Part shown: positions 1,514 through 52,538 of the stretch, one piece after another
How positions within the stretch are numbered: position 1 is the first letter of the stretch
Layout: each line of letters begins with the position of its first letter
Program-made: the position numbers and the translations under genes
Assembly: GCA_964592855.1 (NCBI GenBank)
Contig: CAZQKI010000004.1
Span: forward strand, 1-57,934
Source: an uncultured Lentisphaerales bacterium
GTDB taxonomy: Bacteria > Verrucomicrobiota > Kiritimatiellia > RFP12 > JAAYLN01
DNA length: 57,934 nucleotides
Direction: 5' to 3'
Notes under the pieces: model-generated
The model's database searches: none
Told to the model about the DNA's origin: nothing
Seen by the model: the letters and a program-made list of their open reading frames with translations, nothing else

Positions 1514-1514
1514 C

Positions 1515-2357: not shown

Positions 2358-3493
2358 ATTTCCAGCTTCGTCCACTTCTGGTCGCTCTTGTGGCTGCTGA
2401 AGACCGTTTCGATAAAGGCCATGCCGCGCACGCCGTCGTCCACGGTCGGATAGGCTGGCTGGTAGTCCAGGCCGTTGAGCCGCGCGTCGATGGACTTGGC
2501 AAAATCGGCGTAGATGTTGGCAAAGCACTCGATGAAGCCTTCGGGATGGCCGGCGGGCAGACGGCAAAGGGCGCCGATCGAGGGATCGACCTCCGCCCAG
2601 GAGCGGCGGTAGACCCGCATGGCCTGGTCGTTGGCGCGCCAGATCAGGCTTTCCGGCGTCTGCTGGCTCCACTCCAGCGAACCCGTGGAGCCATACACCC
2701 GGATCTTGAACTGATTTTCCTCGCCGCTGGCAACCTCGCAGGACTCGATCACGCCGTGGGCGCCGTTGTCGAAGCGCAGCAGCACCGTGCCGTCGTCATC
2801 CAGCTGGCGACCCTCGACAAAGGTCGCCAGATCGGCGCAGAGCTCGGTGATCTTCAGCCCCGTGATGTACTCGGCCAGATGCTCAGCATGCGATCCGATG
2901 TCGCCGATGCAGGCGCAGATGCCGGAAAAGCGCGGGTCGCAACGCCACAAGGCCTGCTTGCCGGCGTTGGGTGCCGCCAGCCATCCCAGATCATATTCCA
3001 CGACGACTTTGCGGATAGTTCCGAGCTTGCCTTCGGCGACCATGATCTTGGCCTGCCGGACCATCGGGTAGCCCGAATAATTGTGCATCAGGCAGAAGAG
3101 CAACTTCGTCTTACGAACTTTTCCGCGCAATTTCTTCGCTTCGGCCAGCGAGAGCGTCATCGGCTTGTCGCAAAGGACGTGAAAGCCGCAGTCGAGCGCC
3201 TTCATGGCAATTTTGAAATGCGAGACATTGGGCGTGGCGATGGAGACGAAGTCCATGCGCTCGCCGACGGGAAGCGCCAGCTCCTTTTCGAACATCTCGT
3301 TGTAGTTGGCGTAGCAGCGCGACTCCGGCAGGAACAGTTCGCCGGCCATCGACTTGCTTTTGGCCGGATCCTGGCTGAAAGCACCGCAAACGACGTCAAT
3401 GAAACCATCCAGGCGGGCAGCCGCGCGATGGACTCCGCCAATGAAGGCCCCGGGACCGCCACCAACCATTCCCATTCTGATTTTTCGCTTCAT
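2351..3493 (-). CDS. Gfo/Idh/MocA-family NAD(P)-dependent oxidoreductase
   Basis: MKRKIRMGMVGGGPGAFIGGVHR is an N-terminal Rossmann motif, followed by a typical Gfo/Idh/MocA body (DFVSIATPNVSH, CDKP). The start was moved to Met44 of the track ORF (ATG at 3493-3491). Confidence 0.82.
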   Translation of the reverse strand: MKRKIRMGMVGGGPGAFIGGVHRAAARLDGFIDVVCGAFSQDPAKSKSMAGELFLPESRCYANYNEMFEKELALPVGERMDFVSIATPNVSHFKIAMKALDCGFHVLCDKPMTLSLAEAKKLRGKVRKTKLLFCLMHNYSGYPMVRQAKIMVAEGKLGTIRKVVVEYDLGWLAAPNAGKQALWRCDPRFSGICACIGDIGSHAEHLAEYITGLKITELCADLATFVEGRQLDDDGTVLLRFDNGAHGVIESCEVASGEENQFKIRVYGSTGSLEWSQQTPESLIWRANDQAMRVYRRSWAEVDPSIGALCRLPAGHPEGFIECFANIYADFAKSIDARLNGLDYQPAYPTVDDGVRGMAFIETVFSSHKSDQKWTKLEMC

Positions 3494-3590
3494 CGCTGTC
3501 ACTCCATTTGCATTAATAAATACAACGTCAATGTTTGTAGCGTGCCAGAACAGGCGACAGACATCAAGCCCGAAACTTTCATTGCCAATC

Positions 3591-3619
3591 TTGACCCTCC
3601 CGTCTATTTCCGGCATACT
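3591..3619 (+). promoter_or_regulatory. Candidate sigma70-type promoter for the MFS transporter gene
   Basis: TTGACC (3591-3596), a 17-nt spacer, then CATACT (3614-3619). It lies in the AT-richer divergent region between 3493 and 3713. An AGGAGA Shine-Dalgarno sits 7 nt before the ATG at 3713. Confidence 0.25.
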
Positions 3620-3712
3620 CAAACCCGTTAATTCGCTGCTTCAGGCCGAACCCGACGGGCGTGTGTCCGTGGCGCACGAAAAGCGAATTCCGGTCCGTCA
3701 GGAGACCTGCGA

Positions 3713-5101
3713 ATGTCGACAACCGAAGCTCCCGCTCAAAAACCGCAACCGGTACGCTATCACGCCGGCACGCTCAGCTACACCAGGAACGGCGTGCTCA
3801 TGCTCTTCTTCTGGCTGTTGTGGGGCTACTTTGTCTATGGCTTGATGGAGATCATCCTGCCCAGCCTGCTCCCGCTGATCCTCCGGGGCCATAACGCCAC
3901 CAGCGTGCAGATCTCCTTCATCACGAGCAGCTTGAACGTCATCGGGAACATGGTCTTCAACCCGATCGTCAGCTTCGCCTCGGACCGCAGCCGCAGCCGG
4001 TTCGGGCGGCGTCGCCCGTTCATCATCTGGTCGACGCCCATGGTCGTGCTGTGCCTGGCGCTGGTTCCGTTCGGGCCTGACATCGCCCAATACCTGCAGG
4101 GGTTCGCGGCCGTGAAGAAGGTCCTCGACCTGAGCCCGATCGTGTCGCCCATTCTGTTCATCGCGGTTTTTGTGATGGGGTTCCAGGTCTTCGACACGTT
4201 CGTGGGCGCGGTCTACTACTACCTCGTGCGCGACACGGTGCCGGAGGAGTTCATCGGCCGTTTCTATGGCGTATTCCGCCTGGTCGGAGCGATCGCGCCC
4301 CTCCTCTTCAACCTCTTCATCTTCGGCCATGCGGAATCGCACATGAAGGCGATCTTCGTCGGCATCGCCGCCTTTTACGGACTGGGCATCTACCTGATGT
4401 GCTGGCGCGTGAAGGAGGGCGTGTATCCACCCCCGGAGCCATTGCCCGGGAATGCCAGCGGTCCCTGGACACGCCTGGTCGGGTCGGTCCGGCTCTACTT
4501 CGGCGATTGCTTCAGTCACCGGGTTTACTGGGCCTGTTTCCTGGCCAATGCCATGGCCTCCTGGGCCGGAGCCGCCGGCGTCTTTGCCGTCCTCTTCAAC
4601 CGCCACGAACTGGGCATTCCCCTCGCAACGCTGGGCCGGATCGGCGCCGTGAGCAGCGTCCTGACCTTGGTGATCGCCCTGCCCTGCGGCTGGCTCGCGG
4701 ACAAGCGCAGCGTGTTCAAGATCGTTCAAGTCGGCGTGCTCGTCCGGGCGGTCCTGGTGTTCACGGCCTGGATGGTTGTCCGCGATGCCAAGACACTGCT
4801 CATCATGAGCGTGTGCCTCACACTTCCCGGCATTGCGACGGGCGTGGCCCTGAGCAAGATGCAGATGGTCGTCTGGCCCCGCGAGAAATACGGTCAGTTC
4901 GGATCGGCCAACAGTGCGTTTGCCTCGCTGGGGATGATCGGCATCGCCGTTGTGGCGGCCAAGTTCGTCGACTGGATGGGCAACTACCGCGCCTACTACC
5001 TCTGGAATGCGGTCTTCAGCTTCGCCGCGGTGCCACTCTACATGTGGATGGAGATGGAGTGGAAGAAGCTGGGCGGCAAGGACCATTACACGGCGCCCTG
5101 A
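3713..5101 (+). CDS. MFS-type transporter (probable sugar/glycoside permease)
   Basis: 462-aa ORF with about 12 hydrophobic segments, a short polar N-terminus and charged inter-helix loops (SDRSRSRFGRRRP). The neighbouring genes are sugar-metabolism genes. Confidence 0.75.
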   Translation: MSTTEAPAQKPQPVRYHAGTLSYTRNGVLMLFFWLLWGYFVYGLMEIILPSLLPLILRGHNATSVQISFITSSLNVIGNMVFNPIVSFASDRSRSRFGRRRPFIIWSTPMVVLCLALVPFGPDIAQYLQGFAAVKKVLDLSPIVSPILFIAVFVMGFQVFDTFVGAVYYYLVRDTVPEEFIGRFYGVFRLVGAIAPLLFNLFIFGHAESHMKAIFVGIAAFYGLGIYLMCWRVKEGVYPPPEPLPGNASGPWTRLVGSVRLYFGDCFSHRVYWACFLANAMASWAGAAGVFAVLFNRHELGIPLATLGRIGAVSSVLTLVIALPCGWLADKRSVFKIVQVGVLVRAVLVFTAWMVVRDAKTLLIMSVCLTLPGIATGVALSKMQMVVWPREKYGQFGSANSAFASLGMIGIAVVAAKFVDWMGNYRAYYLWNAVFSFAAVPLYMWMEMEWKKLGGKDHYTAP

Positions 5102-5919
5102 GCGCCTGGCGTAGATCCGGAAGGCCGCAAATGCTGGTCGAACCAGGCGACGGCAACCGGCCAAACCTGCCGGGTCGAGGCATTTTTCGGATTGTAGACG
5201 AACCCATGGCCCGAGCCAGGGCTGGGGAGGAACTGCATGGGACGTCCGGCTCTGGCCAATGCGGCGGCAAGAAGCAACGACTGGTCATAGGGTACAGTCG
5301 CATCCTGGGGATCATGCACCAGAAGCATGGGCGCCGATGTGCCGTCCACATGCAACGCCGGCGAAGCCGCAATCCAGCTCTCCCGCTTTTCGGAAATCGG
5401 CCCGCCCATGAACGCTTCCCAATGACCCAACACCTGGCCGTAGTCCAGGGATGAAACGAGGTCATGGACGCCATGAACATCAACAACGCAGTCGACCTTG
5501 GCCGAGACGGTGTCTTCTGTGTTGTCAAGGACGCCCAGGCACGCAACCAAGTGCCCGCCCGCCGAGCTGCCCAGGGCGCCGATCCGGTTGGCGCTGATAC
5601 CGAAACGGCCCGCGTTGCGGCGGAGCCAGCGAACCGCCGATTGACAATCCACAAGCGCAGCGGGAAAGGATGCTGTCGCCGCCAACCGGTAATCGATCGT
5701 ACACGCCACGTAGCCATGCATCGAAAGACAATGGGCGTGCCACAGGAAGCTTTGCCGTTTTCCGGCATTCCATCCGCCACCATGGACCAGCAGGACCGCC
5801 GCGCCATTGCTCCGGCTCGTGTCGGGAACGTAGATGTCCGTCATCAGGTCCTGGCCTCCCGGGCTGGCGAAACACTCCGTGAAGGTTGGATCGGGCGCCG
5901 GTTTATCGAAGTCATGCAT
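5086..5919 (-). CDS. Alpha/beta-hydrolase (esterase/lipase-like)
   Basis: LLVHGGGWNAG is an HGGG oxyanion-hole motif. GSSAGGHL is a GxSxG nucleophile elbow. A C-terminal GSGHGF supplies the candidate His. Its 3' end overlaps the convergent MFS gene by 16 nt. Confidence 0.78.
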   Translation of the reverse strand: MHDFDKPAPDPTFTECFASPGGQDLMTDIYVPDTSRSNGAAVLLVHGGGWNAGKRQSFLWHAHCLSMHGYVACTIDYRLAATASFPAALVDCQSAVRWLRRNAGRFGISANRIGALGSSAGGHLVACLGVLDNTEDTVSAKVDCVVDVHGVHDLVSSLDYGQVLGHWEAFMGGPISEKRESWIAASPALHVDGTSAPMLLVHDPQDATVPYDQSLLLAAALARAGRPMQFLPSPGSGHGFVYNPKNASTRQVWPVAVAWFDQHLRPSGSTPGAQGAV

Positions 5920-6150
5920 AGTGTCACATCGTCTGTTTCTGGAATTTGAAACTCGTTGTCATTGCCAACAGTGTAATATCGCATGCGCTTCCAGATCAAG
6001 ATTGCGATTATGGCGCTTTGGCATCATCGGAACTGCCAGTCGCCCCCTGATGCGCGGAAAGGTAATGGCGCAGTTACCGGGATGTGCGATTTCATCGCAT
6101 GGACGAGGCATTTGATTTCTTGCGTGTTGCAACAAATCAATCTGCGGGGT

Positions 6151-6448
6151 TCACCACGGAGACGCGGAGTCACGGAGTCCGGGAGGGAAGGTTCACGCAA
6201 CTTCAGGCTTGGCTGACCGGCTGTTGCCGTTGAAGCAAACGGAGATGCTGCCAAGCCTGAAATTGCGTGAACACCTGGCAGGGAGCACGATCCATCGCTC
6301 ATACGCGCAGACCATTCCCGCCGACTCAATAGGGTGTTGCGTGAAGGCGCAGCCGCTGCATGCCATGCGCCGGGTCAGGCCTGGATACGCTGAAAGCGGA
6401 TGCGCCTTCACGCAACCTCTCCTCCATGTCTCCGTGCCTCCGTGGTGA
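6151..6448. repeat. Nested inverted-repeat (palindromic) element in a 680-bp non-coding gap
   Basis: The outer arms are 6151-6177 (TCACCACGGAGACGCGGAGTCACGGAG) and 6422-6448 (its imperfect reverse complement). Inner hairpin 1 pairs 6191-6213 with 6250-6272 (23 nt, 1 mismatch). Inner hairpin 2 pairs 6337-6351 with 6401-6415 (15 nt perfect, extendable to about 21). Both inner stems are based on TTGCGTGAA. Confidence 0.85.
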
Positions 6449-6600
6449 CGTTGTCGCAATGACCGAGGTTGATGGCGTGCCTTCACGGTTCGCGACCTGC
6501 TTTTCATGCTCGCATTACGCACACCCCGGTCACTGACCGCTGACGCGCAGAAAGAATGTCGGAGATTGACATGACCCTCGCGTTTTGACATTTTTCACCT

Positions 6601-16818: not shown

Positions 16819-19608
16819 ATGTCGTCCGCATCTTCACACTCGTCAACCGAGCCTGCCTTGCCGCCCTGGCAGGCGCAGACGGTCTGGGTTTCGTCGGACG
16901 CCTCCGGCGCGCTGCACATGGCGGCCTATCCCAAACTCCGCCCGGCGCAGGCCCGCTTTCTGCTGACCAACGACGCCCTTCAGCTCGCGGATCTGCTCGA
17001 GGCAAGCGCGGAGGCGGCCACGTGGTCGGTCATCGACCTGGCGGAGCTGCATCGTCTGCTGCACCCCGAGTCGGCCTCCGAAAACCTGGCCGACCTGCTT
17101 CCCGACGCCGCAGCCGACGCGCCGCCGGAAACCCGGCTTTGGCAGCTCTGGCTGCAATGCGAGGCCGATCTCGGTGCCCTGCCCCTCTGGACGCTGGAGA
17201 TGGTGGCCGCCGCCTGCCAGGAATTTGACGATCCCGCAACCGGCAAGCTGTTCCGTCTGTTTGCGGATCAGGCCGAGCGTCAGAAGAATGCCGCCCGCAA
17301 CTGGACCGCGACCTTCCTCCCCACCGTCAAACGTGTCGAACGGCCGGAACTTCCCGACCTGACCGACTGCACCGCCGTCGACGCCGGCGCGGCCGTCGCG
17401 CTCCTGGACGAAGGCGGAGCCCTCGCGCGCTGCGTTTCCGGCTATGAACCGCGTCCCGGACAGTTGATGATGGTACGCGCCGTGGTCGAGGCCATCAATG
17501 CCGGCAAGCATCTCGTGGTCGAGGCAGGAACCGGCGTCGGCAAGAGCCTGGGCTACCTCCTCCCCGCCGCGCTCTGGGCGCGCTTGAACGATGTCCCGGT
17601 GGTCATCAGCACCAACACCCGGAACTTGCAGACGCAACTCATCGAGAAGGATCTCCCCGCCGTGCAGCGGATGCTGGCGGACAGCACACCCGCGGCGGCC
17701 GATGGCCAGCCGCCCCGGCCATTGCGCACCGCCCTCATCAAGGGCCGCAGCAACTACCTGTGTCTGCGCCGGCTCGCCAACCAGATGGAGCAGGCCCAGT
17801 TTGACCTGCAACGGCGGGAGCTCCGCCAATTCGCCAGCGTCCTCTGCTGGGCGGCGCGCACCCCCGACGGCGACCTCGACACGCTGGCCAGCGGCGCCGG
17901 AGTCGACCAGGGGATTGCGGCGCAGCTCAATTCGCATGCCGACGACTGTTCCGGTCACGCCTGCAGGCTCTATCGGCGATGCTTCATCCAGAAGGCGCGC
18001 GAGAAGGCCCTGCGCGCCGATCTCATCATCGCGAACCACTCGCTGGTTTTCACCGAGCTCTCCGCAACATCGCCCATCGCCCTGCCGAAGCATGCGCAGA
18101 TCATCTTCGACGAGGCCCACAACCTCGAAGAGGCCGCCACGCGCCACTTCTCGATCGAGTGGTCGCCTTCACGCCTCAACACCTTCACGCGACGGCTGGT
18201 CACGGGACGAGGCAAGCGCCGGCGGGGCATGCTGGAAAATCTCCGCCGCCGCGTCAACAGCGGCGCGCTGCAACAGAACGAGGCGGTCTTCAACCCCCTC
18301 ATGCTGTTGATCGACGAGTCGATGGAAGGCGTCGATGCCCTCCGCAAGACCGGCACCGCGCTCTGCCGCAAGCTCCACGGCCTGCTCGCGACCGACGAGG
18401 AACCCTTGCGCTACCGGTTCGCTGCAGACCCCGCGAATCTCAAGGCGCCGCCCCCCGCGCCCACGGCAGTCTGGCAGGCCATCCGGGCGGCGCAAGCCGA
18501 ATTTCAAACGGTCGTTGAAGCTCAGATTGCGCGCCTCCAGACGATGTCCGACCTGGTTCGGCAGGGAAGCGAAGACGAACTCAACCTCCTGGCCGAGGAG
18601 ACCTCCGACATCGCCGGCGCCATGCAATCGCTGGGCGAACTCCTGCAGGATGTCACCATCGTCCTTTCCGGCCAGGACGAGGAGTCCGTCTTCTGGGTGC
18701 AGCGCGCACGCGGCCCCGAGCCGCTCGCCGAAGCGTGGGCGGCGCCGCTCAAGGTCGGACCCCGTCTGGCGAAGCACTTGTACGAAGCCAGGCGGAGCGT
18801 GATCTTCTGCTCCGCGACGTTGAGTGTCGGTGGACGCTTCACCTACATCGGCGAACGGCTGGGGCTGGACCTGATCGCCGCCGACCGCTTCCTCACCTGC
18901 ATCGCCCCGAGTCCCTTCGACTACGTGCGCCAATGCACCCTGCTGGTGCCCGCCTATCTGCCCGAACCGAATGCCATGGACCGCTCCTACGTTGCGGAAC
19001 TGGCCAATCTCATCCGCCAGGTAGCAACCCGTATGGAGGGGCGCACCCTCTGTCTGTTCACCAGCTACGACATGCTCCGCCAGTGCGCGCATCTGATTGA
19101 ACCTGAACTGCAAGAACACGGCATCCGCCTGCTGGTGCACGGCGAAAGCGGCTCACGCGACCTCATCCTGCGCACGTTCCGCAAGGGCGAGCGCTGCGTG
19201 CTGCTCGGCACACACTCCTTCTGGGAGGGGGTGGACGTCGTGGGCGACGCCCTTTCCTGCGTGATTCTCGCACGCCTCCCCTTCGCTTCGCCCAACGACC
19301 CCGTGGTCAGCGCCCGCTGCGAACAGATCGACAACGAAGGGCAAAGCGCCTTTCGTTCGCTCTCCCTCCCCGCGGCCGTACTGCGCCTGCGCCAGGGCTT
19401 CGGACGCCTGATCCGCCACCGCAGCGATCACGGGTTGGTGATCGTCGCGGACACGCGCATCCTGACGAAGAACTACGGCGGCACCTTCCGCAGGAGCCTC
19501 CCCTGTCCCACGCTCGCCTGCGACGACAGCGACGGCTTCATGGCGCGTGTGGCATCCTGCACCGAAGCCATCAACGCCCTTTCATCGTCAAAGCGCGGCG
19601 ACGTTTAG
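16819..19608 (+). CDS. dinG: DinG/XPD-family Fe-S ATP-dependent DNA helicase with an N-terminal extension of about 200 aa
   Basis: GYEPRPGQLMMVRAV...VVEAGTGVGKSLGYLLPA is the Walker A region. DEAHNLEEA is the DEAH box. Cys pattern LCLRRL...DDCSGHACRLYRRC (C-X4-C-X5-C) matches the DinG Fe-S cluster spacing. C-terminal helicase motifs are LGTHSFWEGVD and RLRQGFGRLIRHRSDHG. Confidence 0.9.
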   Translation: MSSASSHSSTEPALPPWQAQTVWVSSDASGALHMAAYPKLRPAQARFLLTNDALQLADLLEASAEAATWSVIDLAELHRLLHPESASENLADLLPDAAADAPPETRLWQLWLQCEADLGALPLWTLEMVAAACQEFDDPATGKLFRLFADQAERQKNAARNWTATFLPTVKRVERPELPDLTDCTAVDAGAAVALLDEGGALARCVSGYEPRPGQLMMVRAVVEAINAGKHLVVEAGTGVGKSLGYLLPAALWARLNDVPVVISTNTRNLQTQLIEKDLPAVQRMLADSTPAAADGQPPRPLRTALIKGRSNYLCLRRLANQMEQAQFDLQRRELRQFASVLCWAARTPDGDLDTLASGAGVDQGIAAQLNSHADDCSGHACRLYRRCFIQKAREKALRADLIIANHSLVFTELSATSPIALPKHAQIIFDEAHNLEEAATRHFSIEWSPSRLNTFTRRLVTGRGKRRRGMLENLRRRVNSGALQQNEAVFNPLMLLIDESMEGVDALRKTGTALCRKLHGLLATDEEPLRYRFAADPANLKAPPPAPTAVWQAIRAAQAEFQTVVEAQIARLQTMSDLVRQGSEDELNLLAEETSDIAGAMQSLGELLQDVTIVLSGQDEESVFWVQRARGPEPLAEAWAAPLKVGPRLAKHLYEARRSVIFCSATLSVGGRFTYIGERLGLDLIAADRFLTCIAPSPFDYVRQCTLLVPAYLPEPNAMDRSYVAELANLIRQVATRMEGRTLCLFTSYDMLRQCAHLIEPELQEHGIRLLVHGESGSRDLILRTFRKGERCVLLGTHSFWEGVDVVGDALSCVILARLPFASPNDPVVSARCEQIDNEGQSAFRSLSLPAAVLRLRQGFGRLIRHRSDHGLVIVADTRILTKNYGGTFRRSLPCPTLACDDSDGFMARVASCTEAINALSSSKRGDV

Positions 19609-20426
19609 CGGGCCTGGCGCAGGGCATCCAGGTCTGCGGGCATCAGCAGATGGACGCCGGTCCGTACCGCGAGCTCGCGAGCCTGCTCGATTGCACCGAC
19701 GATTTCGCGGGGATGATGGGCGTCGGAATTGATGATGGCGCTGGCCCCGACATCGGCGACGATTTCCCAGAAGGGCTCCCACGGATACATCGGGCGCTCG
19801 CCCTGAGGCGTTTGCATCGGCGGCTTGCGAAAGCCGTAGGCGTTGATTTCCAGCGGCACGTTGGCGGCCCGCGCGGCCTGGGCGATGTCGCGCGCGATTG
19901 CCGCCGTCTCGGCATCCCAAACATCGTAGAAGAAACCGAACACATCGGGATGGGCGACAAAGGCAAACAGCCCCGTGCCGATGCTGGCGACGACATAGTC
20001 CGCATAGGCCCGGAGCAGTTTGGGATCATTCGCCCGCTGGCGTGAGAAGGTGGAACACCACACCCCATCGAGGAGAAACGAGTGGGCGCCGAGCATGAGA
20101 TAGTCCATCTGCTGGCGCCCCAGCAGTTCGTCCGCGAAGTAGTCCTTGAACTCCGGCAGGTACTCGCATTCCAGACCGCAGTAGATCTTCATGGCCGGGT
20201 AGGCCCGGCGGGCCTTCTCGACCGCCTCGCGGTAGGCGGGGAGTTCGTCGGACGCCATGCGGACCGCGATCCAGCGTCCGTCGGGGGTCGGCATGTGGTC
20301 GCTGAAGCCCAGGGTGGTCAGCCCGGCGTCGTCGGCATTGTGCGCATAGTCGAGCGCGTCGCCGGCGGCATGCTTGCAACGGAAGGTGTGAGTGTGCCAG
20401 TTGGCGGTAAATGCGGGTTCGGTCAT
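19605..20426 (-). CDS. PHP-family phosphoesterase (HisJ-type histidinol-phosphatase-like)
   Basis: MTEPAFTANWHTHTFRCKHAAGDALDYAHNADDAGLTTLGFSDHMP, with later AHPD and NSDAHHP metal-ligand motifs. The start was moved to Met22 of the track ORF (ATG at 20426-20424) because the extension reads through the TCGA array. Confidence 0.82.
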   Translation of the reverse strand: MTEPAFTANWHTHTFRCKHAAGDALDYAHNADDAGLTTLGFSDHMPTPDGRWIAVRMASDELPAYREAVEKARRAYPAMKIYCGLECEYLPEFKDYFADELLGRQQMDYLMLGAHSFLLDGVWCSTFSRQRANDPKLLRAYADYVVASIGTGLFAFVAHPDVFGFFYDVWDAETAAIARDIAQAARAANVPLEINAYGFRKPPMQTPQGERPMYPWEPFWEIVADVGASAIINSDAHHPREIVGAIEQARELAVRTGVHLLMPADLDALRQAR

Positions 20427-20446: not shown

Positions 20447-20513
20447 GATTCGACTCGAATCGACGGCAATCGATAGCAGTCGAATGCAATCGAAGGCAAT
20501 CGATCTAGTCGTG
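20447..20513. repeat. Phased TCGA array A (10-bp period)
   Basis: TCGA cores begin at 20450, 20455, 20460, 20470, 20480, 20490 and 20500, with a degenerate TCGT at 20510. The units read TCGACGGCAA / TCGATAGCAG / TCGAATGCAA / TCGAAGGCAA. A 15-bp palindrome, GATTCGACTCGAATC, lies at 20447-20461. The array fills the gap between the SNF2 stop (20505) and the PHP start (20426). Confidence 0.95.
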
Positions 20514-23408
20514 TCTGATCGCCTCCCGCAGGCCGGCCAGCAGCCGCTCGACCGCTGCATCGCACGCCGCGATGGCGTCGTCGGCGCTCGATGGCGCGTC
20601 GGCCCGCAGGCCGAGCAGCACGGGGAGCGCCTCGGCCGGCACGAGGCCGCGCGGCACGAGCGCGGTCTCGACCACGGCGTCGGAGACGGGCTTGTCGGAC
20701 GCGGCTTCGCCCAGCGCCAGGATCGCACCGCCCTTCAGCAGCGCCTCGCAGGCAGCCTTCAGCGGCGCGAGCGATTCGGCTGCAAAACCGTTGGCGCGCA
20801 GCAGGCGCGCCATGCGCAGGCGGCGGTCGGCCTCGTCGACCAGAGGCGCGGCGGCGGCGCGACGCTTCGCCTGCTCGGCGGCCGCGTCGTCGGCCATGCC
20901 GGCCTCGCGGTGCAAGACCTCCGGCGCCGGGCCGGTGAAGCGCAGCACGCCGGCCGCAACCAGCCGCCGGATGGCGGCGTAGGTGGCTTCGTCCAGCACC
21001 TCGACCGCACCCGCGGCATCCGGCGCCACCTGGGCCACAATCCCGGCGCGCGCACCCTCGTCCAGTCCGCGGACGACGGCGACCAGCACGGACGGGTGTC
21101 CGTCCCCGGCACTCGCGTGACGCGCCACCATCCTGACTTGCCCGGCGTGGCGCGCCATCAGATCCTCGCAGAAGGCGCGGGCCGGGTCGGCGGGCCGCCT
21201 GGGCTTCTCGGGCGGCATGGCCATGCCTTTCGGACTCGGCTCGTTGCCGCCCACCATCGACGCAATGCGTTCGAGCATGGCGCGCCGTTCGCCAGCCGTG
21301 TGAATGGCGTCCACACCCGCCGCGCCATCCAGGACGCCGTCCGCCAGCCGCCGCTTGAGCGCCAGCTTGTCGAGCATGGCGTGCTCGATGCAGTTTTCGC
21401 TCACCAGGTTGACCACGCGGACGGCGCGCGTCTGGTGCTTGCGCCAGGCGCGCGCGATGCGCTGTTCGAGGCGTGCCGGGTTCCAAGGCAGGTCGAGGTT
21501 GATGACGACATTGGCGCATTGCAGGTTGAGTCCCGTGGCGCCGGCGTCCGTGGAGATGAAGAGGCGGCAGTCGGGATCGTTCTTGAAGCGGTTGATCTCA
21601 TCGCGCCGCTGCTTCTGCGGCACCGAACCGGTGTGCCAGGCGAAGCCGACGCCCAGAGTCTCCGCTTCGTCGCGCACCAACTGCTGCATCCGCTCCCACT
21701 CGGAGAAGAGGATGATCTTGCTGTCGCCCTCCGCCAGGATCGGCTCGAGCAGGGCGCGCAGTTCCGTCAGCTTGGGACAGATGCGGCAGTCGGGATCGAG
21801 GATGAAGGGGGTGTCGCAGAGCATGCGCATGCAGGCCAGCCACTTCTGCAGCTTGTCCCACTCGTCGCGCGTCAGGGGGCGGCGCTTGGCCATGGCGACC
21901 AGCTTGGCAACGCGCGTCTCGTACTCCTCGTAGCGCAGGCGCTGCTCGGGATCGAGCGGTACGAAGTGGTTGCGCACGGTGCGCTCGGGCAGTTGGTCCT
22001 CAACCTCGGACTTGCGGCGGCGCAGCATCACGGGACGCAGGCGGCGGTGCAGTTCAGCGAGGTTGCACACGCCCACCGGGCGGCCCCTCTCGTCGAGGTC
22101 GTAGAACTCGCGGTTGAAGCGGAAAAGGGGGCCGAACAGGTCGCGATTCAGGAACTCGACGATGGAGTAGACTTCGTCGATGCGGTTCTCCAGCGGCGTG
22201 CCCGTGAGCACGAAGGCGTAGGGCGCAGCAAGGCGTTTGATCTGCCGCGCGGTGCGGGTGGTCCAGTTCTTGATACGCTGGGCCTCGTCCAGGATGACCA
22301 CCTCCGGGGCGAGCAGCGCGTTGATCTCCTCGACATCGTCGCGCACCTGCTCGTAGTTGCAGATATGGAAGAAGGTCTCCGTGCGGTATTGCCGCAGCCG
22401 CGCGGCGCGGGGGCCCCAGACCAGTTCGAGGCCCAGGTCGCAGAAGCGCCGGATCTGCTCCTCCCATTCGCTCTTCAGCGAGGCCGGGGTGACGACCAGC
22501 ACGCGCCGAACGCCGCGCACCTGGCGCAGCAGTTCGCAGGCGGCGATGGCCTGGATGGTCTTGCCGAGTCCCATCTCGTCGGCCAGCAGCACCCGTTCGC
22601 CAAAAGCCAGGTGGAGCATGCCGTCGTGCTGGTAGGGATAGAGCTTCGTCGACAGCACATCGAGCGTGCGCTTGCCGGCCTGCACGTCCTGCAGGAAGTC
22701 GGCCCGCGCCTGCTCGCGGTCGCGCTCGCGGCGGCGGCTGGCGGTCCAGTCCAGCACGTCGCGGGAGATGCGGATCTGGCGGGCGACGGCACCGGCCGCC
22801 GCCGCAGCGCGCTGCAGTGCCGGAATTGCGTCGACCGGGTCGGCCAGCAGCAGGCCGTTGGCGTCGAAGAAGGGCGCCAGCGCCTGACGCACGCGCGTGC
22901 CCGGCCGAGGGCAGGCGGGAATGCCTGCCCCACCTTGCGGCGCCGACGCCTTGCGCGCGTGCGCGCTCGGGCCGTGCGGCCAGGAGACGCGGACGCGCGG
23001 CGCCCCTTGCAGGCGGGAGAGGAAGACCTCGGCGAAGGGCGAGCCCGCCTCCCCGGCGCGCAGGAAAGCGAGTTTCTTCCCGCGGCGCAGGCGCTCCAGC
23101 GTGGCTTCGATGTGCTTGCAGGTGCCGAGGCCGCTGTGACGGAAATCGGTGCAGGTGCAGGAGTTTTCCGGCGCCAGGAGGGCGCGGATCTCGACCTGAT
23201 AGCGTCGGCCGCTGCCGCCGGAGGTCACGTCGAAATCGCCGTGGAAACCGTCAGGGGCGGGCACCGACGGCGCGATGGTCATCTCCTCGGTCTGCGCGCG
23301 GTGGCGGCGCAGGGCGATTTCGTCGGCGTCGGTGGTGTTCCATCCTTGGAGCTTGGGGGGCTTGGGCGGGGTGGCGGATGTGGCGCGCTTATGAGAAGTA
23401 GTGGGCAT
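20505..23408 (-). CDS. SWIM zinc-finger / SNF2-family (Swi2/Snf2) ATPase with an Ala-rich C-terminal extension of about 300 aa
   Basis: SWIM motif: CTCTDFRHSGLGTCKH. SNF2 motifs: LADEMGLGKTIQAIA, VILDEAQRIKN, LTGTPLENR, STDAGATGLNLQ, NPARLEQRIARAWRKHQ. The start was moved to the ATG at 23408-23406 (MPTTSHK) because the track extension reads through array B1. Confidence 0.9.
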   Translation of the reverse strand: MPTTSHKRATSATPPKPPKLQGWNTTDADEIALRRHRAQTEEMTIAPSVPAPDGFHGDFDVTSGGSGRRYQVEIRALLAPENSCTCTDFRHSGLGTCKHIEATLERLRRGKKLAFLRAGEAGSPFAEVFLSRLQGAPRVRVSWPHGPSAHARKASAPQGGAGIPACPRPGTRVRQALAPFFDANGLLLADPVDAIPALQRAAAAAGAVARQIRISRDVLDWTASRRRERDREQARADFLQDVQAGKRTLDVLSTKLYPYQHDGMLHLAFGERVLLADEMGLGKTIQAIAACELLRQVRGVRRVLVVTPASLKSEWEEQIRRFCDLGLELVWGPRAARLRQYRTETFFHICNYEQVRDDVEEINALLAPEVVILDEAQRIKNWTTRTARQIKRLAAPYAFVLTGTPLENRIDEVYSIVEFLNRDLFGPLFRFNREFYDLDERGRPVGVCNLAELHRRLRPVMLRRRKSEVEDQLPERTVRNHFVPLDPEQRLRYEEYETRVAKLVAMAKRRPLTRDEWDKLQKWLACMRMLCDTPFILDPDCRICPKLTELRALLEPILAEGDSKIILFSEWERMQQLVRDEAETLGVGFAWHTGSVPQKQRRDEINRFKNDPDCRLFISTDAGATGLNLQCANVVINLDLPWNPARLEQRIARAWRKHQTRAVRVVNLVSENCIEHAMLDKLALKRRLADGVLDGAAGVDAIHTAGERRAMLERIASMVGGNEPSPKGMAMPPEKPRRPADPARAFCEDLMARHAGQVRMVARHASAGDGHPSVLVAVVRGLDEGARAGIVAQVAPDAAGAVEVLDEATYAAIRRLVAAGVLRFTGPAPEVLHREAGMADDAAAEQAKRRAAAAPLVDEADRRLRMARLLRANGFAAESLAPLKAACEALLKGGAILALGEAASDKPVSDAVVETALVPRGLVPAEALPVLLGLRADAPSSADDAIAACDAAVERLLAGLREAIRHD

Positions 23409-23420
23409 GGGTTCTACCTT

Positions 23421-23484
23421 TCGATGGGATTGGCGGAGATCGACCCCAGTCGACCCCTGTCGACACCAGTCGACTACAGTCAAT
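23421..23484. repeat. Phased TCGA array B1 (10-bp period)
   Basis: TCGA cores begin at 23421, 23440, 23450, 23460 and 23470, with a degenerate TCAA at 23480. The units read TCGACCCCAG / TCGACCCCTG / TCGACACCAG / TCGACTACAG. The array starts 13 nt upstream of the SNF2 ATG. Confidence 0.93.
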
Positions 23485-23547
23485 GGGTGGATCGGCTACC
23501 AGGAGGAGCGGCAGGAGGAGGTGGCGGAGGGTGGGCACGGGTGGATT

Positions 23548-23601
23548 TCGACTAGACTCGACTTGAATCGACTGGAGTCGACTCGAGTCGATTGGTGTCG
23601 A
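23548..23601. repeat. Phased TCGA array B2 (10-bp period)
   Basis: TCGA cores begin at 23548, 23558, 23568, 23578, 23583, 23588 and 23598. The units read TCGACTAGAC / TCGACTTGAA / TCGACTGGAG / TCGACTCGAG / TCGATTGGTG / TCGACATCGC. The array overlaps the last ~17 codons and the stop of the 23552-24328 gene. Confidence 0.93.
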
Positions 23602-24328
23602 CATCGCGCAGGCCGTCGCATTCGGGGTAGTTGGTGCAGCCCCAGAACTGGCTCCCGGCGCGGGGGCCTTTGCGGGCGTGGCGCAGGCGCATGGGGGCGT
23701 GGCACTTGGGGCAGGCGGGGACGTCTTTGGCGGCAGGTTCGGCACGGGCTTCGGCACGCTGGCGGGTCATCCGCTCCTTGAAGCCACCATCGGCCAGGAA
23801 GCGGTCGCCCTGGGCGTCGAGTTGCTTGCGGATCAGGAAGTCGGCGCGGTCGCAGAGGCGCACGAGTGCGTTGGCAAGGACGGTGGGGTCGTCGGACTTG
23901 AGCCACTTATCGAACAGTGCCCGGTTGGCAGCAACGGTGCGGGAGAAGTTGTGGATGATGTCCGCGCCGGGAGGCGTGCGTTCGAGGCGGATGGTCTTGA
24001 TGGCGAGGCTGTCGGGGTCTTCGTCGCGCCAGGGAAACTGGCCGGAGAGGTTGATGAAGTCCTCGTAGTCGAGCTGGAGTTCGACCAGGCTGGCATGGGC
24101 GACGTCAGTGAGCTGGATCTCGGTCTGCGTGGAGGTGGCGGCGCGCTCGGAGCCCTCGGCCAGATTCTGGCGGCCGGAGCGCGCGGCCTGCGTCATTTGT
24201 TCGGTCTGGCGGGTGCTGGCGATGTACTTCCGGCAGAACTCGACCGTGGCGTAGTAGATGATCGTGGCCAGCATGAAGGTGTCGAGCCGACGATAGCCAC
24301 CACGCTTGGCGAAGAGAGGGGACGACAT
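23552..24328 (-). CDS. Four-helix-bundle protein (TIGR02436-like, with suffix domain) fused to a topoisomerase-type C4 zinc ribbon
   Basis: The N-terminus (YRRLDTFMLATIIYYATVEFCRKY...SGRQNLAEGSER) resembles the family known as the four helix bundle / 23S rRNA intervening-sequence protein. The C-terminus (CPKCHAPMRLRHARKGPRAGSQFWGCTNYPECDG) is a zf-C4_Topoisom-type ribbon. A strong AAGGAG Shine-Dalgarno lies 9 nt before the ATG at 24328. Confidence 0.75.
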   Translation of the reverse strand: MSSPLFAKRGGYRRLDTFMLATIIYYATVEFCRKYIASTRQTEQMTQAARSGRQNLAEGSERAATSTQTEIQLTDVAHASLVELQLDYEDFINLSGQFPWRDEDPDSLAIKTIRLERTPPGADIIHNFSRTVAANRALFDKWLKSDDPTVLANALVRLCDRADFLIRKQLDAQGDRFLADGGFKERMTRQRAEARAEPAAKDVPACPKCHAPMRLRHARKGPRAGSQFWGCTNYPECDGLRDVDTNRLESTPVDSSRV

Positions 24329-24364
24329 TATAGGACTCCTTGAGTTGTCTACTTTCCCGACGAG

Positions 24365-24410
24365 ATCGATTCGAGTCGACTCGTATCGATTCGAGTCGAC
24401 TCGAGTCGAT
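24365..24410. repeat. Phased TCGA array C (5-bp period; 20-bp tandem unit; perfect palindromes)
   Basis: TCGA cores begin at 24366, 24371, 24376, 24386, 24391, 24396, 24401 and 24406, with TCGT at 24381. ATCGATTCGAGTCGACTCG(T/A) is repeated in tandem (24365-24384 and 24385-24404). TCGAGTCGACTCGA at 24391-24404 is a perfect 14-bp palindrome. The array lies between the alaS stop (24420) and the 4HB start (24328). Confidence 0.95.
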
Positions 24411-24419
24411 CAATTAAAC

Positions 24420-26207
24420 CTATTCCAGCACCGCCTTGATGCGCCGCACGCCGGCGCTGGAGCTCTCCTCCTTCTGGATCTTGAACTTGCCCAGCTCGCC
24501 GGTGGTTTTGGCGTGCGGCCCGCCGCAGACCTCCTTTGAGAAGTCGCCGGCGCTGTAGACCTTCACCTGCTCGCCATATTTGGCGGCGAACAGGGCCATG
24601 GCGCCTTTCTCGCGAGCCTCTTCGATGGTCATGGTCTCCAGGGTCACCGGCAGGTTGCGGCCGATCTGATCATTGACGATGCGTTCGACCTCGGCCAGTT
24701 GTTCGGGCGTCATCTTCTCAGGATGCGTGAAATCGAACCGCAGCCGCTCGGGGGTGATGTTCGACCCCTTCTGCTGGACGTGCTCGCCGAGCACGAGCTG
24801 CAGGGCCTTCTGCAGCAGGTGGGTGGCGGTGTGGAGGCGCGTGGTCGTTTCGCCGGCATCGGCCAAGCCGCCCTTGAACGTCGCGTCGCCCTGCTTGGAG
24901 AGCTCCTGGTGCTTCTTGAACGCCTCTTCGTAGCCGGCGCGGTCGACCGCCAGCCCCTGCTCGGCAGCCAGTTCTTCGGTCATCTCCAGCGGGAAACCGT
25001 AGGTGTCGTAGAGCTTGAAGGCGGTGCGTCCGGAGAGCTGCGTCTGCCCATGCTGCTTGAGGGCGGCGGAGATCTTGTCGAACTCCCTCTGGCCGGCCGT
25101 CAGCGTCTTCTCGAAACGCTCCTCCTCGGCGGCGAGTTCGGCGAAGATAAGTTCGCGCTTCTCCTTCAGCTCGGGATAGACATGGCCATAGTTGTCGACG
25201 ACCACCTCGGCCAGGGAGCGGGCGAAGCCGGCGCCGATGCCGAGGAGCTTGGCGTAGCGGACGGCGCGGCGGATCAGGCGCCGGAGCACGTAGTTGGCGC
25301 CGAGGTTGCCGGGCTTAACCCCGCCTTTGGGATCGCCGAGGATGAAGGTGGCGGTACGCAGGTGGTCGGCGATGATCCGTTCGGCGCGCTGGCGAAGCGC
25401 GGAATCTTCGGGCAGTGTCGTGGAAAGGGCCGCGATTTTCGCCATCAGCGGCGCGAAGAGTTCCGTCTCGAAGACCGACGCACGCCCCTGGAGCATGCAG
25501 ATGGTCCGCTCAACGCCCATGCCGGTATCCACGTTGGCCTGGTTCAGCGGCTCGTAGCGTCCATCGGCCGTCTTGTTGTACTGCATGAAGACGTCGTTCC
25601 AGATCTCCAGGTACTTGCCGCAGCGGCAGCCCGGCCGGCAGCCGGGGCCGCAGGCGTCCTTGAGCGTGTCGACGAACATCTCGGTGTCGGGGCCGCAGGG
25701 GCCGGTCTGGCCGGCGGGGCCCCACCAGTTGTCGTCCTTCGGCAGGGCATGGATGCGCTCGGCAGGGATGCCGAGCGAGGCCCAGATGGTGATCGACTTC
25801 TCGTCGCGGGGGATGTCGCCTTCCCCTTCGAAGACCGTCACGCTGAGGCGGGCCGGATCGAAGCCGAGGTAAGCCTTCGAGGTGAGGAACTCATAGGACC
25901 AGGCAATCGCCTCATCCTTGAAGTAGTCGCCGAGCGACCAGTTGCCCAGCATCTCGAAGAAGGTGAGGTGCGAATTGTCGCCGACGGCATCGATGTCGCC
26001 CGTCCGGACGCATTTCTGCACGTCAGTCAGGCGACGTCCCGCGGGATGGGGTTCGCCCAGCAGATAGGGGACAAGCGGATGCATGCCCGCCGTGGTGAAG
26101 AGCACGGTGGGGTCGTTCTCGGGGATCAGCGAAGCGCCCGAGATGATCTTATGTCCCTTGGATTCAAAGAAGCGGAGATACTTTTCACGGAGTTGGTCGG
26201 CAGTCAT
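24420..26207 (-). CDS. alaS: Alanine--tRNA ligase, short form (595 aa; lacks the C-Ala domain and part of the editing region)
   Basis: MTADQLREKYLRFFESKGHKIISGASLIPENDPTVLFTTAGM..., FFEMLGNWSLGDYFK, GPCGPDTE, EIWNDVFMQYN and DTGMGVERT mark the class II AlaRS core. HTATHLLQ (HxxxH) and CGGPH (CxxxH) are the editing-site motifs. The protein ends about 25 aa after CGGPH. Confidence 0.9.
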   Translation of the reverse strand: MTADQLREKYLRFFESKGHKIISGASLIPENDPTVLFTTAGMHPLVPYLLGEPHPAGRRLTDVQKCVRTGDIDAVGDNSHLTFFEMLGNWSLGDYFKDEAIAWSYEFLTSKAYLGFDPARLSVTVFEGEGDIPRDEKSITIWASLGIPAERIHALPKDDNWWGPAGQTGPCGPDTEMFVDTLKDACGPGCRPGCRCGKYLEIWNDVFMQYNKTADGRYEPLNQANVDTGMGVERTICMLQGRASVFETELFAPLMAKIAALSTTLPEDSALRQRAERIIADHLRTATFILGDPKGGVKPGNLGANYVLRRLIRRAVRYAKLLGIGAGFARSLAEVVVDNYGHVYPELKEKRELIFAELAAEEERFEKTLTAGQREFDKISAALKQHGQTQLSGRTAFKLYDTYGFPLEMTEELAAEQGLAVDRAGYEEAFKKHQELSKQGDATFKGGLADAGETTTRLHTATHLLQKALQLVLGEHVQQKGSNITPERLRFDFTHPEKMTPEQLAEVERIVNDQIGRNLPVTLETMTIEEAREKGAMALFAAKYGEQVKVYSAGDFSKEVCGGPHAKTTGELGKFKIQKEESSSAGVRRIKAVLE

Positions 26208-26492: not shown

Positions 26493-26545
26493 TCAATAAT
26501 CTGGACATTTTGTCGCACCGTACCCGCACAGGTGCTTTCGATTCG

Positions 26546-26626
26546 GTTGACGCTTACGGCGACGCTTACGGTCGACGGCAAGACGATTATTCCTCGTAAT
26601 CCGTAAGCGTCGCCGTAAGCGTCAAC
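26546..26626. repeat. Perfect 26-bp inverted repeat built from 12-mer units (REP-like family member R1)
   Basis: GTTGACGCTTACGGCGACGCTTACGG (26546-26571) is the exact reverse complement of CCGTAAGCGTCGCCGTAAGCGTCAAC (26601-26626), with a 29-nt loop. Related copies lie at 42757-42826 and 55683-55740. Confidence 0.92.
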
Positions 26627-26757
26627 CGGTTCCCACGGCAGTTACCCGAGTGTTTATCGGAGCGAAGCCGCGCGGCAGGCTGATATCTTGCGGGCGGCGG
26701 AGGGGACGCGGAGGGTGGGCTGGCATATTAACTGCTTCAAGGATGCACACCTGTTCC

Positions 26758-37022: not shown

Positions 37023-37043
37023 AGCGGGGCACTCCTGCCGCGA

Positions 37044-37227
37044 CCGTTGCGGCTGCATCGGTCGTGCACCTGCCGGAGGAACGGGACGTATCGGACCGTT
37101 CAGCGTGGGGTGCGCGGTCCCGTAGGTCCCTCGCTACTGTTGCGGCTGCATCGGTCGGGCGCCTGCCGGTAGAACGGGACGTATCGGACCGTTCCCCCGC
37201 AGGGTGCGCGGTCCCATAGGTCCCGCG

Positions 37228-37250
<23 letters not shown>
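37044..37250. repeat. Tandem direct repeat with a period of about 94 bp (2.2 copies) whose unit begins with a copy of the pyrG 3' terminus
   Basis: Units start at 37044, 37137 and 37231 (the last partial, inside pyrG). Each begins C(C/T)GTTGCGGC(T/A)GCATC(G/C)GTC and contains GGGACGTATCGGACCGTT followed by GCGCGGTCCC(G/A)TAGGTCCC, which form hairpins. The repeat lies between the convergent glnN and pyrG genes. Confidence 0.9.
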
Positions 37251-42756: not shown

Positions 42757-42826
42757 CCGTAGTCGTCGCCGTAGTCGTCAACCGACCCTCCCCCCATCCA
42801 GTGGACGACAACGGCGACGACAACGG
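42757..42826. repeat. REP-like 12-mer hairpin family member R2
   Basis: CCGTAGTCGTCGCCGTAGTCGTCAAC (42757-42782) faces GTGGACGACAACGGCGACGACAACGG (42801-42826). The arms are complementary apart from 3 mismatches, and the loop is 18 nt. Confidence 0.85.
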
Positions 42827-49419: not shown

Positions 49420-49591
49420 GGTTGCAGGTGCCGGGTTCCGGGCAACTGGACCTGTGGTTCAGACAGTGGGGAGGACCGCGCTAGAATCGCGTAGGACGGT
49501 CGATTGCTGACCGTCCGCTATCCTGCAACCAGGTATTTGCCTCCGCCCTCTCTTTTGGGTTTGCATTCTGTATCGAGTCAGGATTACTCCG

Positions 49592-52375: not shown

Positions 52376-52538
52376 CGGTCATCGGACACAGATCGCGTGG
52401 ACGGTGGAGCGTGGACGGCGTTCGCTGACATCAAACCCTATTTTTAAATAATCGGCTTCATTCGCGAATCGCCCGCCAACGCTCCCGCCTCTTCAGCCTC
52501 TCCCTGATCAACAAGATTGAATCACACCCTCGTCATCA

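Follow-up and report, generated by a model that had tools for sequence, protein, structure and literature searches.

Phased TCGA arrays accompany a four-helix-bundle suffix gene in a Lentisphaerales bacterium, and phased arrays with clade-specific cores recur around its homologues

When regularly spaced repeats fill every gap in a string of genes, which of those genes do they belong to, and what might they do there? The question is raised by a 57,934-bp stretch of DNA from an uncultured Lentisphaerales bacterium (contig CAZQKI010000004.1; the whole stretch is called the window here), in which four arrays of the tetranucleotide TCGA, A1 to A4, accompany four co-directional minus-strand genes: alaS, a gene for a 258-aa protein with a four-helix bundle (4HB) and a Zn ribbon (4HB-Zn), a gene for a SNF2-family helicase and a gene for a PHP-domain protein (Table 1). 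A preliminary description of this DNA had stated that the arrays fill all three gaps of the string, and the gene map agrees, with A3 in addition overlapping the end of the called 4HB-Zn open reading frame (ORF). The same description had tied the arrays either to the Zn-ribbon protein or to the SNF2 motor. As set out below, the arrangement of an array, a 4HB-suffix gene and a further array, with cores that are specific to the protein clade, is a family-wide architecture.

The arrays of the window are real, non-random and, among the TCGA arrays of the 58 kb, confined to this locus. Direct reading and counting gave a total of 27 TCGA cores (7, 5, 7 and 8 in A1 to A4), the same figures as reported before. 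Adjacent cores are 5 or 10 bp apart throughout, so that the exact 5- and 10-bp steps of the preliminary description stand as a lattice, the sole exception being one 19-bp step in A2. Tandem Repeats Finder returned periods of 5, 10 and 20 at the four array positions, and the base period is 5 bp, with a unit TCGAC-TC(G/C)AG in which alternate copies have decayed (consensus G-TCGA-C-T-C-(G/C)-A-G over 84 units). Comparison with randomised controls supports the regularity: when the window was simulated 200 times with a first-order Markov model, runs of at least three cores on the 5/10 lattice averaged 0.03 per sequence, and runs of at least four cores at 5/10 bp were found in none, compared with four in the window itself. 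No other regular cluster with at least four TCGA per 80 bp was found in the rest of the window (64% G+C). The array region is identical in seven independent assemblies (L001-L007), with no array-length polymorphism among them, and A1 to A4 are therefore not assembly artefacts. The unit of A1 is directional, TCGAYTGCnn, and the array ends with TCGAtTCGAgTCGA, while A4 is a near-perfect palindrome (inverted repeats I5, I13 and I14) and the arm formed by A3 is inverted relative to A2. In the related locus L211, the sequence next after the downstream array is a homologue of the A3-A2 spacer, and the downstream array of the Kiritimatiellae locus L064 is likewise followed by a similar C-rich run. 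The earlier statement that nothing like these arrays occurs elsewhere in the 58 kb is true for TCGA arrays only, because two hairpins of a tandem 12-bp unit are present. The one at 26544-26628 (TTGACGCTTACGG-CGACGCTTACGG) has 28-nt arms that are 100% complementary, each arm being two tandem copies of the unit; the one at 42757-42826 (CCGTAGTCGTCG x2) has 26-nt arms that are 88% complementary and are built of a related 12-bp unit. Both are intergenic, and tandem-repeat hairpins therefore recur in this genome outside the TCGA locus.

Two surveys, one starting from the arrays and one from the protein, place the locus in a wider setting. GTDB genomes, one for each species, were scanned for five TCGA cores at 10 bp, which yielded at least 120 loci. 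Many of the scan matches listed are plain tandem repeats, and one recurring class has a conserved core and variable spacers. In bacteria of the Planctomycetes-Verrucomicrobia-Chlamydiae (PVC) group the unit of this class is TCGAYTGCnn, as in A1, and in Bacteroidales it is TCGAnTTAAn. A homologue of the 258-aa protein lies directly beside the array in 3 of the 120 TCGA-array loci listed, namely L031 (Bacteroidales), L064 (Kiritimatiellae, with arrays on both sides) and L022 (Alistipes); the TCGAYTGC unit of A1 also flanks the 4HB-Zn gene of L064. The reverse survey took 80 metagenomic loci picked solely by protein similarity to the 258-aa protein. By eye, most of them have short-period arrays on both sides of the gene. 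Exact 5-mer chains (at least three copies at a fixed period) occur in 36% of the upstream and 24% of the downstream flanks compared with 3.4% of 1127 control windows, which are largely coding, so that relative to other intergenic DNA the enrichment is less than these percentages imply. A periodicity score based on lag p and lag 2p exceeds the 95th percentile of the controls in 35 of 72 upstream and 37 of 75 downstream flanks (Mann-Whitney p about 1e-17 and 1e-15, respectively), and at least one flank exceeds that percentile in 53 of the 80 loci. Among the scored flanks the period is most often 9 (49 flanks), followed by 8 (11), 10 (10) and 7 (2). The core clusters lie right at both gene ends (38 loci), and in most loci they are confined to the ends of the 4HB gene. 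Upstream and downstream flanks share at least three 8-mers in 27 of 67 loci, while the same-locus control gave 1 of 51. The 38% G+C locus L150 is an independent replicate of the pattern in which every gap is filled, with another core: pairs of inverted GGACYAA arrays occupy every gap of a SpoU / 4HB-Zn / Lnt / SnoaL string. The tie to the Zn-ribbon protein has thus been borne out, in that homologues in Bacteroidales, Kiritimatiellae and many metagenomic lineages lie between matching short-period arrays. Full-text searches of the literature library used returned no description of repeats flanking 4HB-suffix genes, the sole related note being one on heptamers in Coxiella. The association is strong, phylum-spanning and apparently undescribed.

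Both the core and the period follow the clade of the protein and not the G+C content of the host. Protein clustering places the window's protein in a clade with TCGA at 10 bp. Another clade has TTGAC/GTCAA at 9 bp, mostly as direct copies and then inverted copies; in a further one TCGA recurs at 9-10 bp, and a sub-clade of it has a period of 8 bp (CGTCA, TCGAA); and yet another has GGATC/CCGAC-type cores at 9 bp, frequently in just 2-4 units. In clades 3 and 4 each flank consists of a direct-repeat run followed by inverted repeats. Core and period track the protein clade across host G+C contents of 36-67%, with one clade alone spanning 36-64%. Arrays of the window's clade have a mean of 5.25 cores, and many arrays in other clades have 10-30 units. 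One helical turn had been put forward as the conserved property, a view that these data do not sustain: periods in the family are 10, 9 and 8 bp, and the period is 7 bp in Coxiella's intervening sequence (IVS) (PMC4990558). Because the periods differ among clades, the conserved property is a fixed lattice with a clade-specific core rather than the helical turn.

Orthologous loci separate the 4HB gene from its SNF2 neighbour. The alaS genes of the window, L208, L209, L211 and L214 are 86-90% identical, and in three of these five genomes (the window, L211 and L214) a 4HB gene is present with full arrays on both sides. In L211 (4HB-Zn 87% identical) and L214 (81%) the order is recA-alaS-4HB-Zn, with 5-6 TCGA cores at 5/10 bp on each side of the 4HB-Zn gene; at both loci the upstream flank recurs downstream as a direct repeat of about 35-45 bp, and counterparts of A4 occupy the alaS/4HB-Zn junction in both. 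These orthologous arrays retain the cores and the 5/10 lattice, whereas neither their spacers nor the remainder of the gap can be aligned, in keeping with the original proposal that core and phase are conserved rather than a recently amplified unit. In L208 and L209, alaS is followed directly by the SNF2 gene, with no 4HB gene between them. L208 has no TCGA run in the scan, and inspection by eye suggests a decayed array in its 56-bp gap; L209 has a 3-core array (TCGAcgggcgTCGAcaccagTCGA) at the alaS-SNF2 junction that is almost identical to the upstream array of L211. L217, which has the closest SNF2 orthologue (88%), reads alaS-SNF2-PHP with no 4HB gene and no array in the first gap, and it carries a 3-core remnant (TCGAccgccagTCGAgtctagTCGA) at the SNF2 stop, the same junction as that of A1. 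L210 has neither arrays nor a 4HB gene. The proposed link to the SNF2 motor was therefore rejected, since the closest orthologues (L208, L209, L210 and L217, 76-88% identical) have no full arrays and no 4HB gene. Whether the arrays are kept at orthologous loci thus has two answers: they are where the 4HB gene is present, and they are not at SNF2 genes that lack it. Full arrays go with the 4HB gene and not with SNF2, because the four relatives that have alaS-SNF2 or the SNF2 gene alone, and no 4HB gene, keep 3-core remnants at most. These remnants may mark the junctions of a lost module, and the simplest history suggested by the comparison would be an ancestral module after alaS followed by two losses. 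Alternatively, repeated site-specific gain of the module, instead of ancestral presence and losses, may have produced the same distribution. A different type of repeat was seen in L214, where the recA-alaS gap (3030-3160) holds a hairpin of GTCATTG / CAATGAC heptamer runs 2 kb from the TCGA arrays.

The protein that accompanies the arrays combines an S23p/Avd-like four-helix bundle with a TIGR04258 suffix, formed by a pair of helices, and a C4 Zn ribbon of the Top1 type. The suffix scores 56.3 bits (cut-off 40) over residues 148-196 and the TIGR02436 bundle 24.9 bits (cut-off 24), with PF05635 at 24.2 bits falling below its gathering score of 33.8. With TIGR04258 following the TIGR02436 bundle, the protein is a 'four helix bundle suffix domain-containing protein', the name that its homologues bear. 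These homologues form 2517 sequence clusters at 90% identity, and those named come from Kiritimatiellota, with one from a Chloroflexales metagenome-assembled genome. The AlphaFold model has a mean pLDDT of 90, and its best Foldseek matches are 2gsc and 2rld, which are pentameric members of the S23p family, with the Zn ribbon resembling the GRF of NEIL3; a sequence profile search of the PDB returned Top3-alpha and 2gsc. Zn ribbons of the GRF / Top3-alpha type are nucleic-acid-binding modules. No HUH or other recognisable catalytic domain was found in the protein with Pfam, NCBIfam or PADLOC. The conserved part stops near residue 242. A3 overlaps the last 16 codons of the ORF as called, and the last ~16 residues (VDTNRLESTPVDSSRV) are not conserved in homologues, which end at about G-x-R-D/E-V or in other low-complexity tails such as DRSDRS and PTDPTD. 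A3 therefore encodes no functional tail; the ORF simply reads into the array up to a stop. Low-complexity N- or C-terminal tails were also seen in the homologues P0108, P0113 and P0076 (SDRSDRS, PTDPTDPTD, EPLEVEGSR), and to judge from their sequences these are probably translated flanking arrays, that is, gene-calling artefacts. A phage origin was rejected, as a single, distant relative was found in 2.9 million viral contigs.

Taken together, these observations can be accommodated if A1 to A4 are cis sites that an oligomeric 4HB protein binds cooperatively, as part of a gene module bracketed by arrays. We regard this explanation as the best available and give it a little less than an even chance. 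The 4HB-Zn protein would oligomerise in the manner of its pentameric relatives 2gsc and 2rld, and the oligomer would bind the phased cores cooperatively, either as duplex DNA or as single strands or hairpins of the quasi-palindromic arrays. Because every array is preceded by a stop codon and followed by the next ribosome-binding site, binding there would set or insulate the expression of the 4HB-Zn gene itself and of the next cistron. The module occupies the position between alaS and the SNF2 gene, with a further solo array, A1, one gene downstream. The two flanking arrays repeat each other in direct orientation, so that a recombination event joining them could delete the cassette and leave a solo array behind. 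A fixed lattice carrying an invariant core is seen more typically where a protein recognises the sequence than where a stem forms.

Several observations weigh against cooperative binding by the 4HB protein, in addition to the coding bias of the control windows. The link between protein and arrays is one of association only. About a third of the loci, chiefly in clade 1, have weak arrays or none. Arrays are also carried by members that lack the Zn ribbon (L022, the viral-contig locus L215 and, weakly, Prevotella nigrescens, L216), and the Zn ribbon is therefore not the sole reader. Some arrays do not adjoin a 4HB gene at all. A1 itself is one of these; at L128 (2030-3021) a pair of genes for a VapB antitoxin and a PIN-domain (VapC) toxin lies between two nearly identical 4-core TCGA arrays (TCGACTGGnnTCGACGACAGTCGAGGCTG); in genomes of Kiritimatiellae, Lentisphaeria, Victivallales and Muribaculaceae, solo phased TCGA arrays are found in gaps between housekeeping genes; and in the Lentisphaeria bacterium STF2_230 a 5-6-core AATCGAYAGC array is situated inside a dispersed repeat of ~200 bp. 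If such solo arrays are bound, the protein acts in trans; otherwise the arrays lead a life of their own. Finally, when only the spacers were shuffled and the TCGA cores were kept, A4, A3, the downstream array of L211 and both L064 arrays were still more stable than expected (z about -3), and this folding stability of core-kept arrays equally fits an RNA or a cruciform role.

The strongest competitor follows from that last point. The arrays may act as RNA, with transcript hairpins serving as RNase III sites, 3'-end stabilisers or terminators, in which case recognition by a protein is unneeded. All arrays lie within a co-directional gene string, and folded as RNA, A4 and A3 give hairpins of -33.4 and -29.4 kcal/mol (z = -3.7 and -5.0, respectively, against dinucleotide shuffles). 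A2 has no hairpin of its own (z = -0.6), yet it pairs with A3: the inverted repeat I8 joins 23458-23481 to 23580-23603 with 88% complementarity, and A3 and A2 together, across the C-rich spacer, reach -74.2 kcal/mol, well beyond dinucleotide shuffles. Spacers add stability beyond the palindromic cores not only in the arrays named above but also in the downstream flanks of L133 and L175, and the run of direct and then inverted repeats in clades 3 and 4 suits hairpin formation as well. There is also a precedent in the Coxiella IVS, which carries an S23p gene and has a 28-bp terminal stem cut by RNase III (PMC4990558). On the other side, stems require no invariant 4-nt core on a fixed lattice, and in A1, A2, L131 downstream and L133 upstream the spacers contribute no stability (z about 0 in spacer-only shuffles). 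The 8-mer TCGAYTGC of A1 and the L064 arrays is directional and not a palindromic unit. The only wobble in the A2/A3 stem is a G-T on the non-coding strand, and no intrinsic-terminator signature was found in consensus scans. Moreover, of 147 flanks folded in sense and antisense, 72 favoured one strand and 73 the other; this lack of a sense-strand advantage fits a DNA-level or strand-symmetric role. An RNA function that dispenses with the protein appears unlikely, if still a serious contender.

It is less probable again that the arrays are recombination or mobility sites, through which 4HB-Zn and VapBC cassettes enter and leave gaps in the manner of att sites or of insertion sequences that target repetitive extragenic palindromic (REP) elements. 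Under this explanation insertion would yield a cassette flanked by direct-repeat arrays and excision a solo array, which is what the mutual direct repeats of the flanks, the 3-core solo array at the 'empty' junction of L209 and the bracketed VapBC pair of L128 resemble; homologues at 73-78% identity also occur in unrelated gene contexts, and clade-3 members lie between hsdS and hsdR of type I restriction operons. The module and the 58 kb, however, encode no recombinase, transposase or integrase, the housekeeping genes that are also bracketed (SNF2 in the window; SpoU and Lnt in L150) would make improbable cassettes, viral contigs contain almost no members of the family, and the window's clade keeps the gene after alaS at 81-87% identity, which fits vertical descent with two losses. 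That the arrays are generic, near-neutral repeats of the REP type or the type of miniature transposable elements (MITEs), or products of replication slippage, found near the 4HB gene by coincidence, is quite improbable. The solo arrays between unrelated housekeeping genes, the array within the dispersed repeat of the Lentisphaeria genome and the further tandem-repeat hairpins of the window would all fit such an origin. It is difficult to reconcile with the position of all four arrays within 4 kb of the 4HB gene and of none in the other 54 kb, with the tracking of protein clade rather than host G+C, with the clustering of cores at gene ends and the matching of flanks within loci, with the seven identical assemblies, in which slippage variation was not seen, and with a Prevotella flank that occurs at only two places in a 568-kb replicon. 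The explanation originally proposed, a ParR/parC-type centromere or a TaqI-type methylation array as a partition or epigenetic signal, is very improbable indeed. Phased direct repeats do resemble parC iterons, and TCGA is the TaqI site. Nevertheless, the centromere idea finds no support in the context, an ordinary chromosomal housekeeping stretch in which the 58 kb encode no partition protein, no ParM/ParA/TubZ-type NTPase and no ribbon-helix-helix adaptor, and arrays split over three gaps and overlapping a stop codon are unlike a single centromere. TaqI-type methylation is likewise not supported as an organising principle, since sister clades use TTGAC, GGATC/CCGAC and CGTCA at periods of 8-9 bp and no methyltransferase is encoded in the 58 kb.

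Among known systems, the closest is the S23p-carrying IVS found in the 23S rRNA of Coxiella, Leptospira, Brucella and Xanthomonas. The cargo has the same fold in both cases, the S23p/PF05635/TIGR02436 four-helix bundle, and both are small elements bounded by stem-capable repeats. At the present locus the flanks, being quasi-palindromic, can pair with one another, and folding predicts strong local hairpins. In Coxiella, two to three tandem heptamers (GACAGAT) lie directly upstream of the ORF (PMC4990558), and the clade-4 locus L133 similarly carries TCGACAGAT nonamers. In contrast to an IVS, the present module lies between protein-coding genes and not in a 23S rRNA helix (9, 25 or 45), its protein has a suffix domain and a Zn ribbon in addition, and in place of a single long inverted repeat it has arrays of many copies whose conserved core keeps to a fixed lattice, with further arrays in neighbouring gaps. 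Iteron and operator arrays (ParR-parC, the heptads of the omega repressor, TubR-tubC, the metboxes of MetJ) share with the arrays described here a core repeated 4-10 times at a fixed period, conservation of the core with drift of the spacer, a position adjoining the gene of the presumed binder, and direct and inverted sets. They differ in that no partition or replication partner gene is present here, in that the presumed binder is a 4HB/Zn-ribbon protein and not a ribbon-helix-helix or winged-helix one, and in that the gene has arrays on either side, which overlap stop codons. For ParR/parC in particular, there is no adjacent partition operon, the iterons do not form one compact cluster on a plasmid or prophage, and the chromosomal gene order is shared with relatives. 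REP elements, the REPINs they form and the associated RAYT transposases offer a further parallel, in which a gene is flanked by short palindromic repeats whose type co-varies with the gene lineage and single copies occur immediately past stop codons in intergenic gaps. A RAYT, however, is an IS200/IS605-like HUH tyrosine transposase, whereas the 4HB-Zn model is an all-helical bundle with a Zn ribbon, and unlike REP elements the arrays stay close to the gene instead of being dispersed, both in the window and at most loci. By analogy only, TRAP and HutP resemble the present case in a ring-shaped homo-oligomer (a pentamer in 2gsc and 2rld, taken as the model) and in ~4-8 cores with a 5-nt base period upstream of ribosome-binding sites; they differ from it in that many arrays of other clades have 10-30 units and in that no sense-strand bias is seen here. 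Integron attC sites were rejected, as the cores TCGA, TTGAC and GGATC do not fit GTTRRRY by inspection, and so was an integron cassette array, given that the bracketed SNF2, SpoU and Lnt genes are conserved housekeeping genes and that the window has no integrase.

Table 1. Genes and repeat features of the alaS-PHP string, in window coordinates
Feature	Coordinates	Strand	Description
alaS	24420-26207	-	595-aa short form; PRK01584, 957 bits, end-to-end match
Array A4	24365-24410 (cores 24366-24409)	-	8 cores; spacings 5, 5, 10, 5, 5, 5, 5; between alaS stop (24420) and ribosome-binding site and start of 4HB-Zn gene (24328)
Four-helix-bundle suffix / Zn-ribbon gene (4HB-Zn)	23552-24328	-	258 aa as called; Pfam and NCBIfam
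Array A3	23548-23601	-	7 cores; spacings 10, 10, 10, 5, 5, 10; 3' end of 4HB-Zn ORF
A3-A2 spacer	23485-23547	-	C-rich on coding strand
Array A2	23421-23484	-	5 cores: 23421, then 23440/50/60/70 (four at 10 bp); directly upstream of SNF2 ribosome-binding site and start (23408); orientation opposite to A3
SNF2-family helicase gene	20505-23408	-	967 aa; between A2 and A1
Array A1	20447-20513 (cores 20450-20503)	-	7 cores; spacings 5, 5, 10, 10, 10, 10; between SNF2 stop (20505) and PHP start (20426); solo array
PHP-domain protein gene	19605-20426	-	HisJ-like histidinol phosphatase; downstream of A1

The genes surrounding the module are ordinary chromosomal ones. alaS and the PHP gene are housekeeping neighbours, with alaS outside the module, and the recA-alaS context is kept in relatives; the chromosomal proximity of the SNF2 gene to alaS is likewise conserved. 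Compared with the canonical enzyme of ~875 aa, the short-form alaS is missing the C-terminal C-Ala domain; that it might be truncated or split was considered and rejected, as its 595 aa match the short-form family PRK01584 over the full length. The remaining window encodes chromosomal metabolism, including a transketolase, carbamoyl-phosphate synthase, glutamine synthetase III, CTP synthase, purF, an ammonium transporter and glutamate synthase. No Rfam family (rRNA included) and no tRNA was found in the window, and consensus scans for promoters and terminators gave nothing exceeding shuffle expectation. In PADLOC the 4HB-Zn protein had no match, and SNF2 and a DinG-like helicase gave generic helicase-core matches only, on which outcome a defence system was rejected. 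The gene for this 929-aa DinG-family helicase (16819-19608) converges on the PHP gene with a 4-bp overlap of their ends, and its product matches the PADLOC model for type IV CRISPR-associated DinG (E = 4.5e-137), with no cas genes or CRISPR array nearby. A 93-bp tandem repeat (2.3 copies, 87% matches) lies at 37039-37250 between the convergent glutamine synthetase III and CTP synthase genes, and three successive plus-strand ORFs (927, 927 and 969 aa) with high G+C at third codon positions and no Pfam match at E <= 1e-5 occupy 46636-55635.

Some of the loci encountered in other genomes have further features of their own. In L150, whose string spans 970-6570, a 115-bp array-containing unit is present in six tandem copies at 970-1775. 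In the clade-3 loci L136, L137, L140, L147, L148 and others, which carry TTGAC/GTCAA arrays at 9 bp, the 4HB-Zn gene directly follows the 3' end of hsdS (C-terminus ...LLHQAFAGEL) of a type I restriction system; the L136 gene precedes hsdR, and some of the upstream hsdS ends look frameshifted. The VapBC pair of L128 lies 1 kb upstream of a 77%-identical 4HB-Zn gene, with a run of GGTGAAT heptamers beside the second array. In the Muribaculaceae and other Bacteroidales loci L034, L041, L055, L058, L068, L074, L080 and L086, phased TCGA cores take turns with half-units resembling TTAA (TCGAnTTAAn); these arrays occupy the short stretches that separate co-directional housekeeping genes, and no 4HB gene is found for about 1 kb around. 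The ~200-bp repeat of STF2_230 is found on at least four contigs (L015 985-1330, L025, L071 and L099), with its array flanked on both sides by CCTTTGCGGCAKCGGTTTCATAGGAG, and it looks like a MITE.

We know of no function outside diversity-generating retroelements for the S23p / '23S rRNA intervening-sequence protein' / Avd-like 4HB family, even though it is widespread and has solved structures. The match between array and clade turns this orphan family into a testable pair of protein and nucleic acid, and the module reading opens a way to understand why these genes do no harm when lodged in operons and rRNA. It is possible, although on balance we would not count on it, that 4HB-suffix proteins and their clade-specific arrays form an undescribed, phylum-spanning class of protein plus cognate repeat, in which an oligomeric and probably ring-shaped protein would read four to eight or more cores on a 5-10-nt lattice, and in which the arrays would lie on either side of the gene, spread into adjacent gaps and allow the cassette to be gained and lost. 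For annotation, the low-complexity N- and C-terminal tails on these proteins find an explanation as read-through into arrays, and a class of phased intergenic repeats is flagged in PVC and Bacteroidales genomes. Ultimately, if a class of cognate repeats of this kind is real, it would be the first function for the orphan 'IVS protein' family and would explain why 4HB genes occur in rRNA and in type I restriction operons as well as between housekeeping genes.

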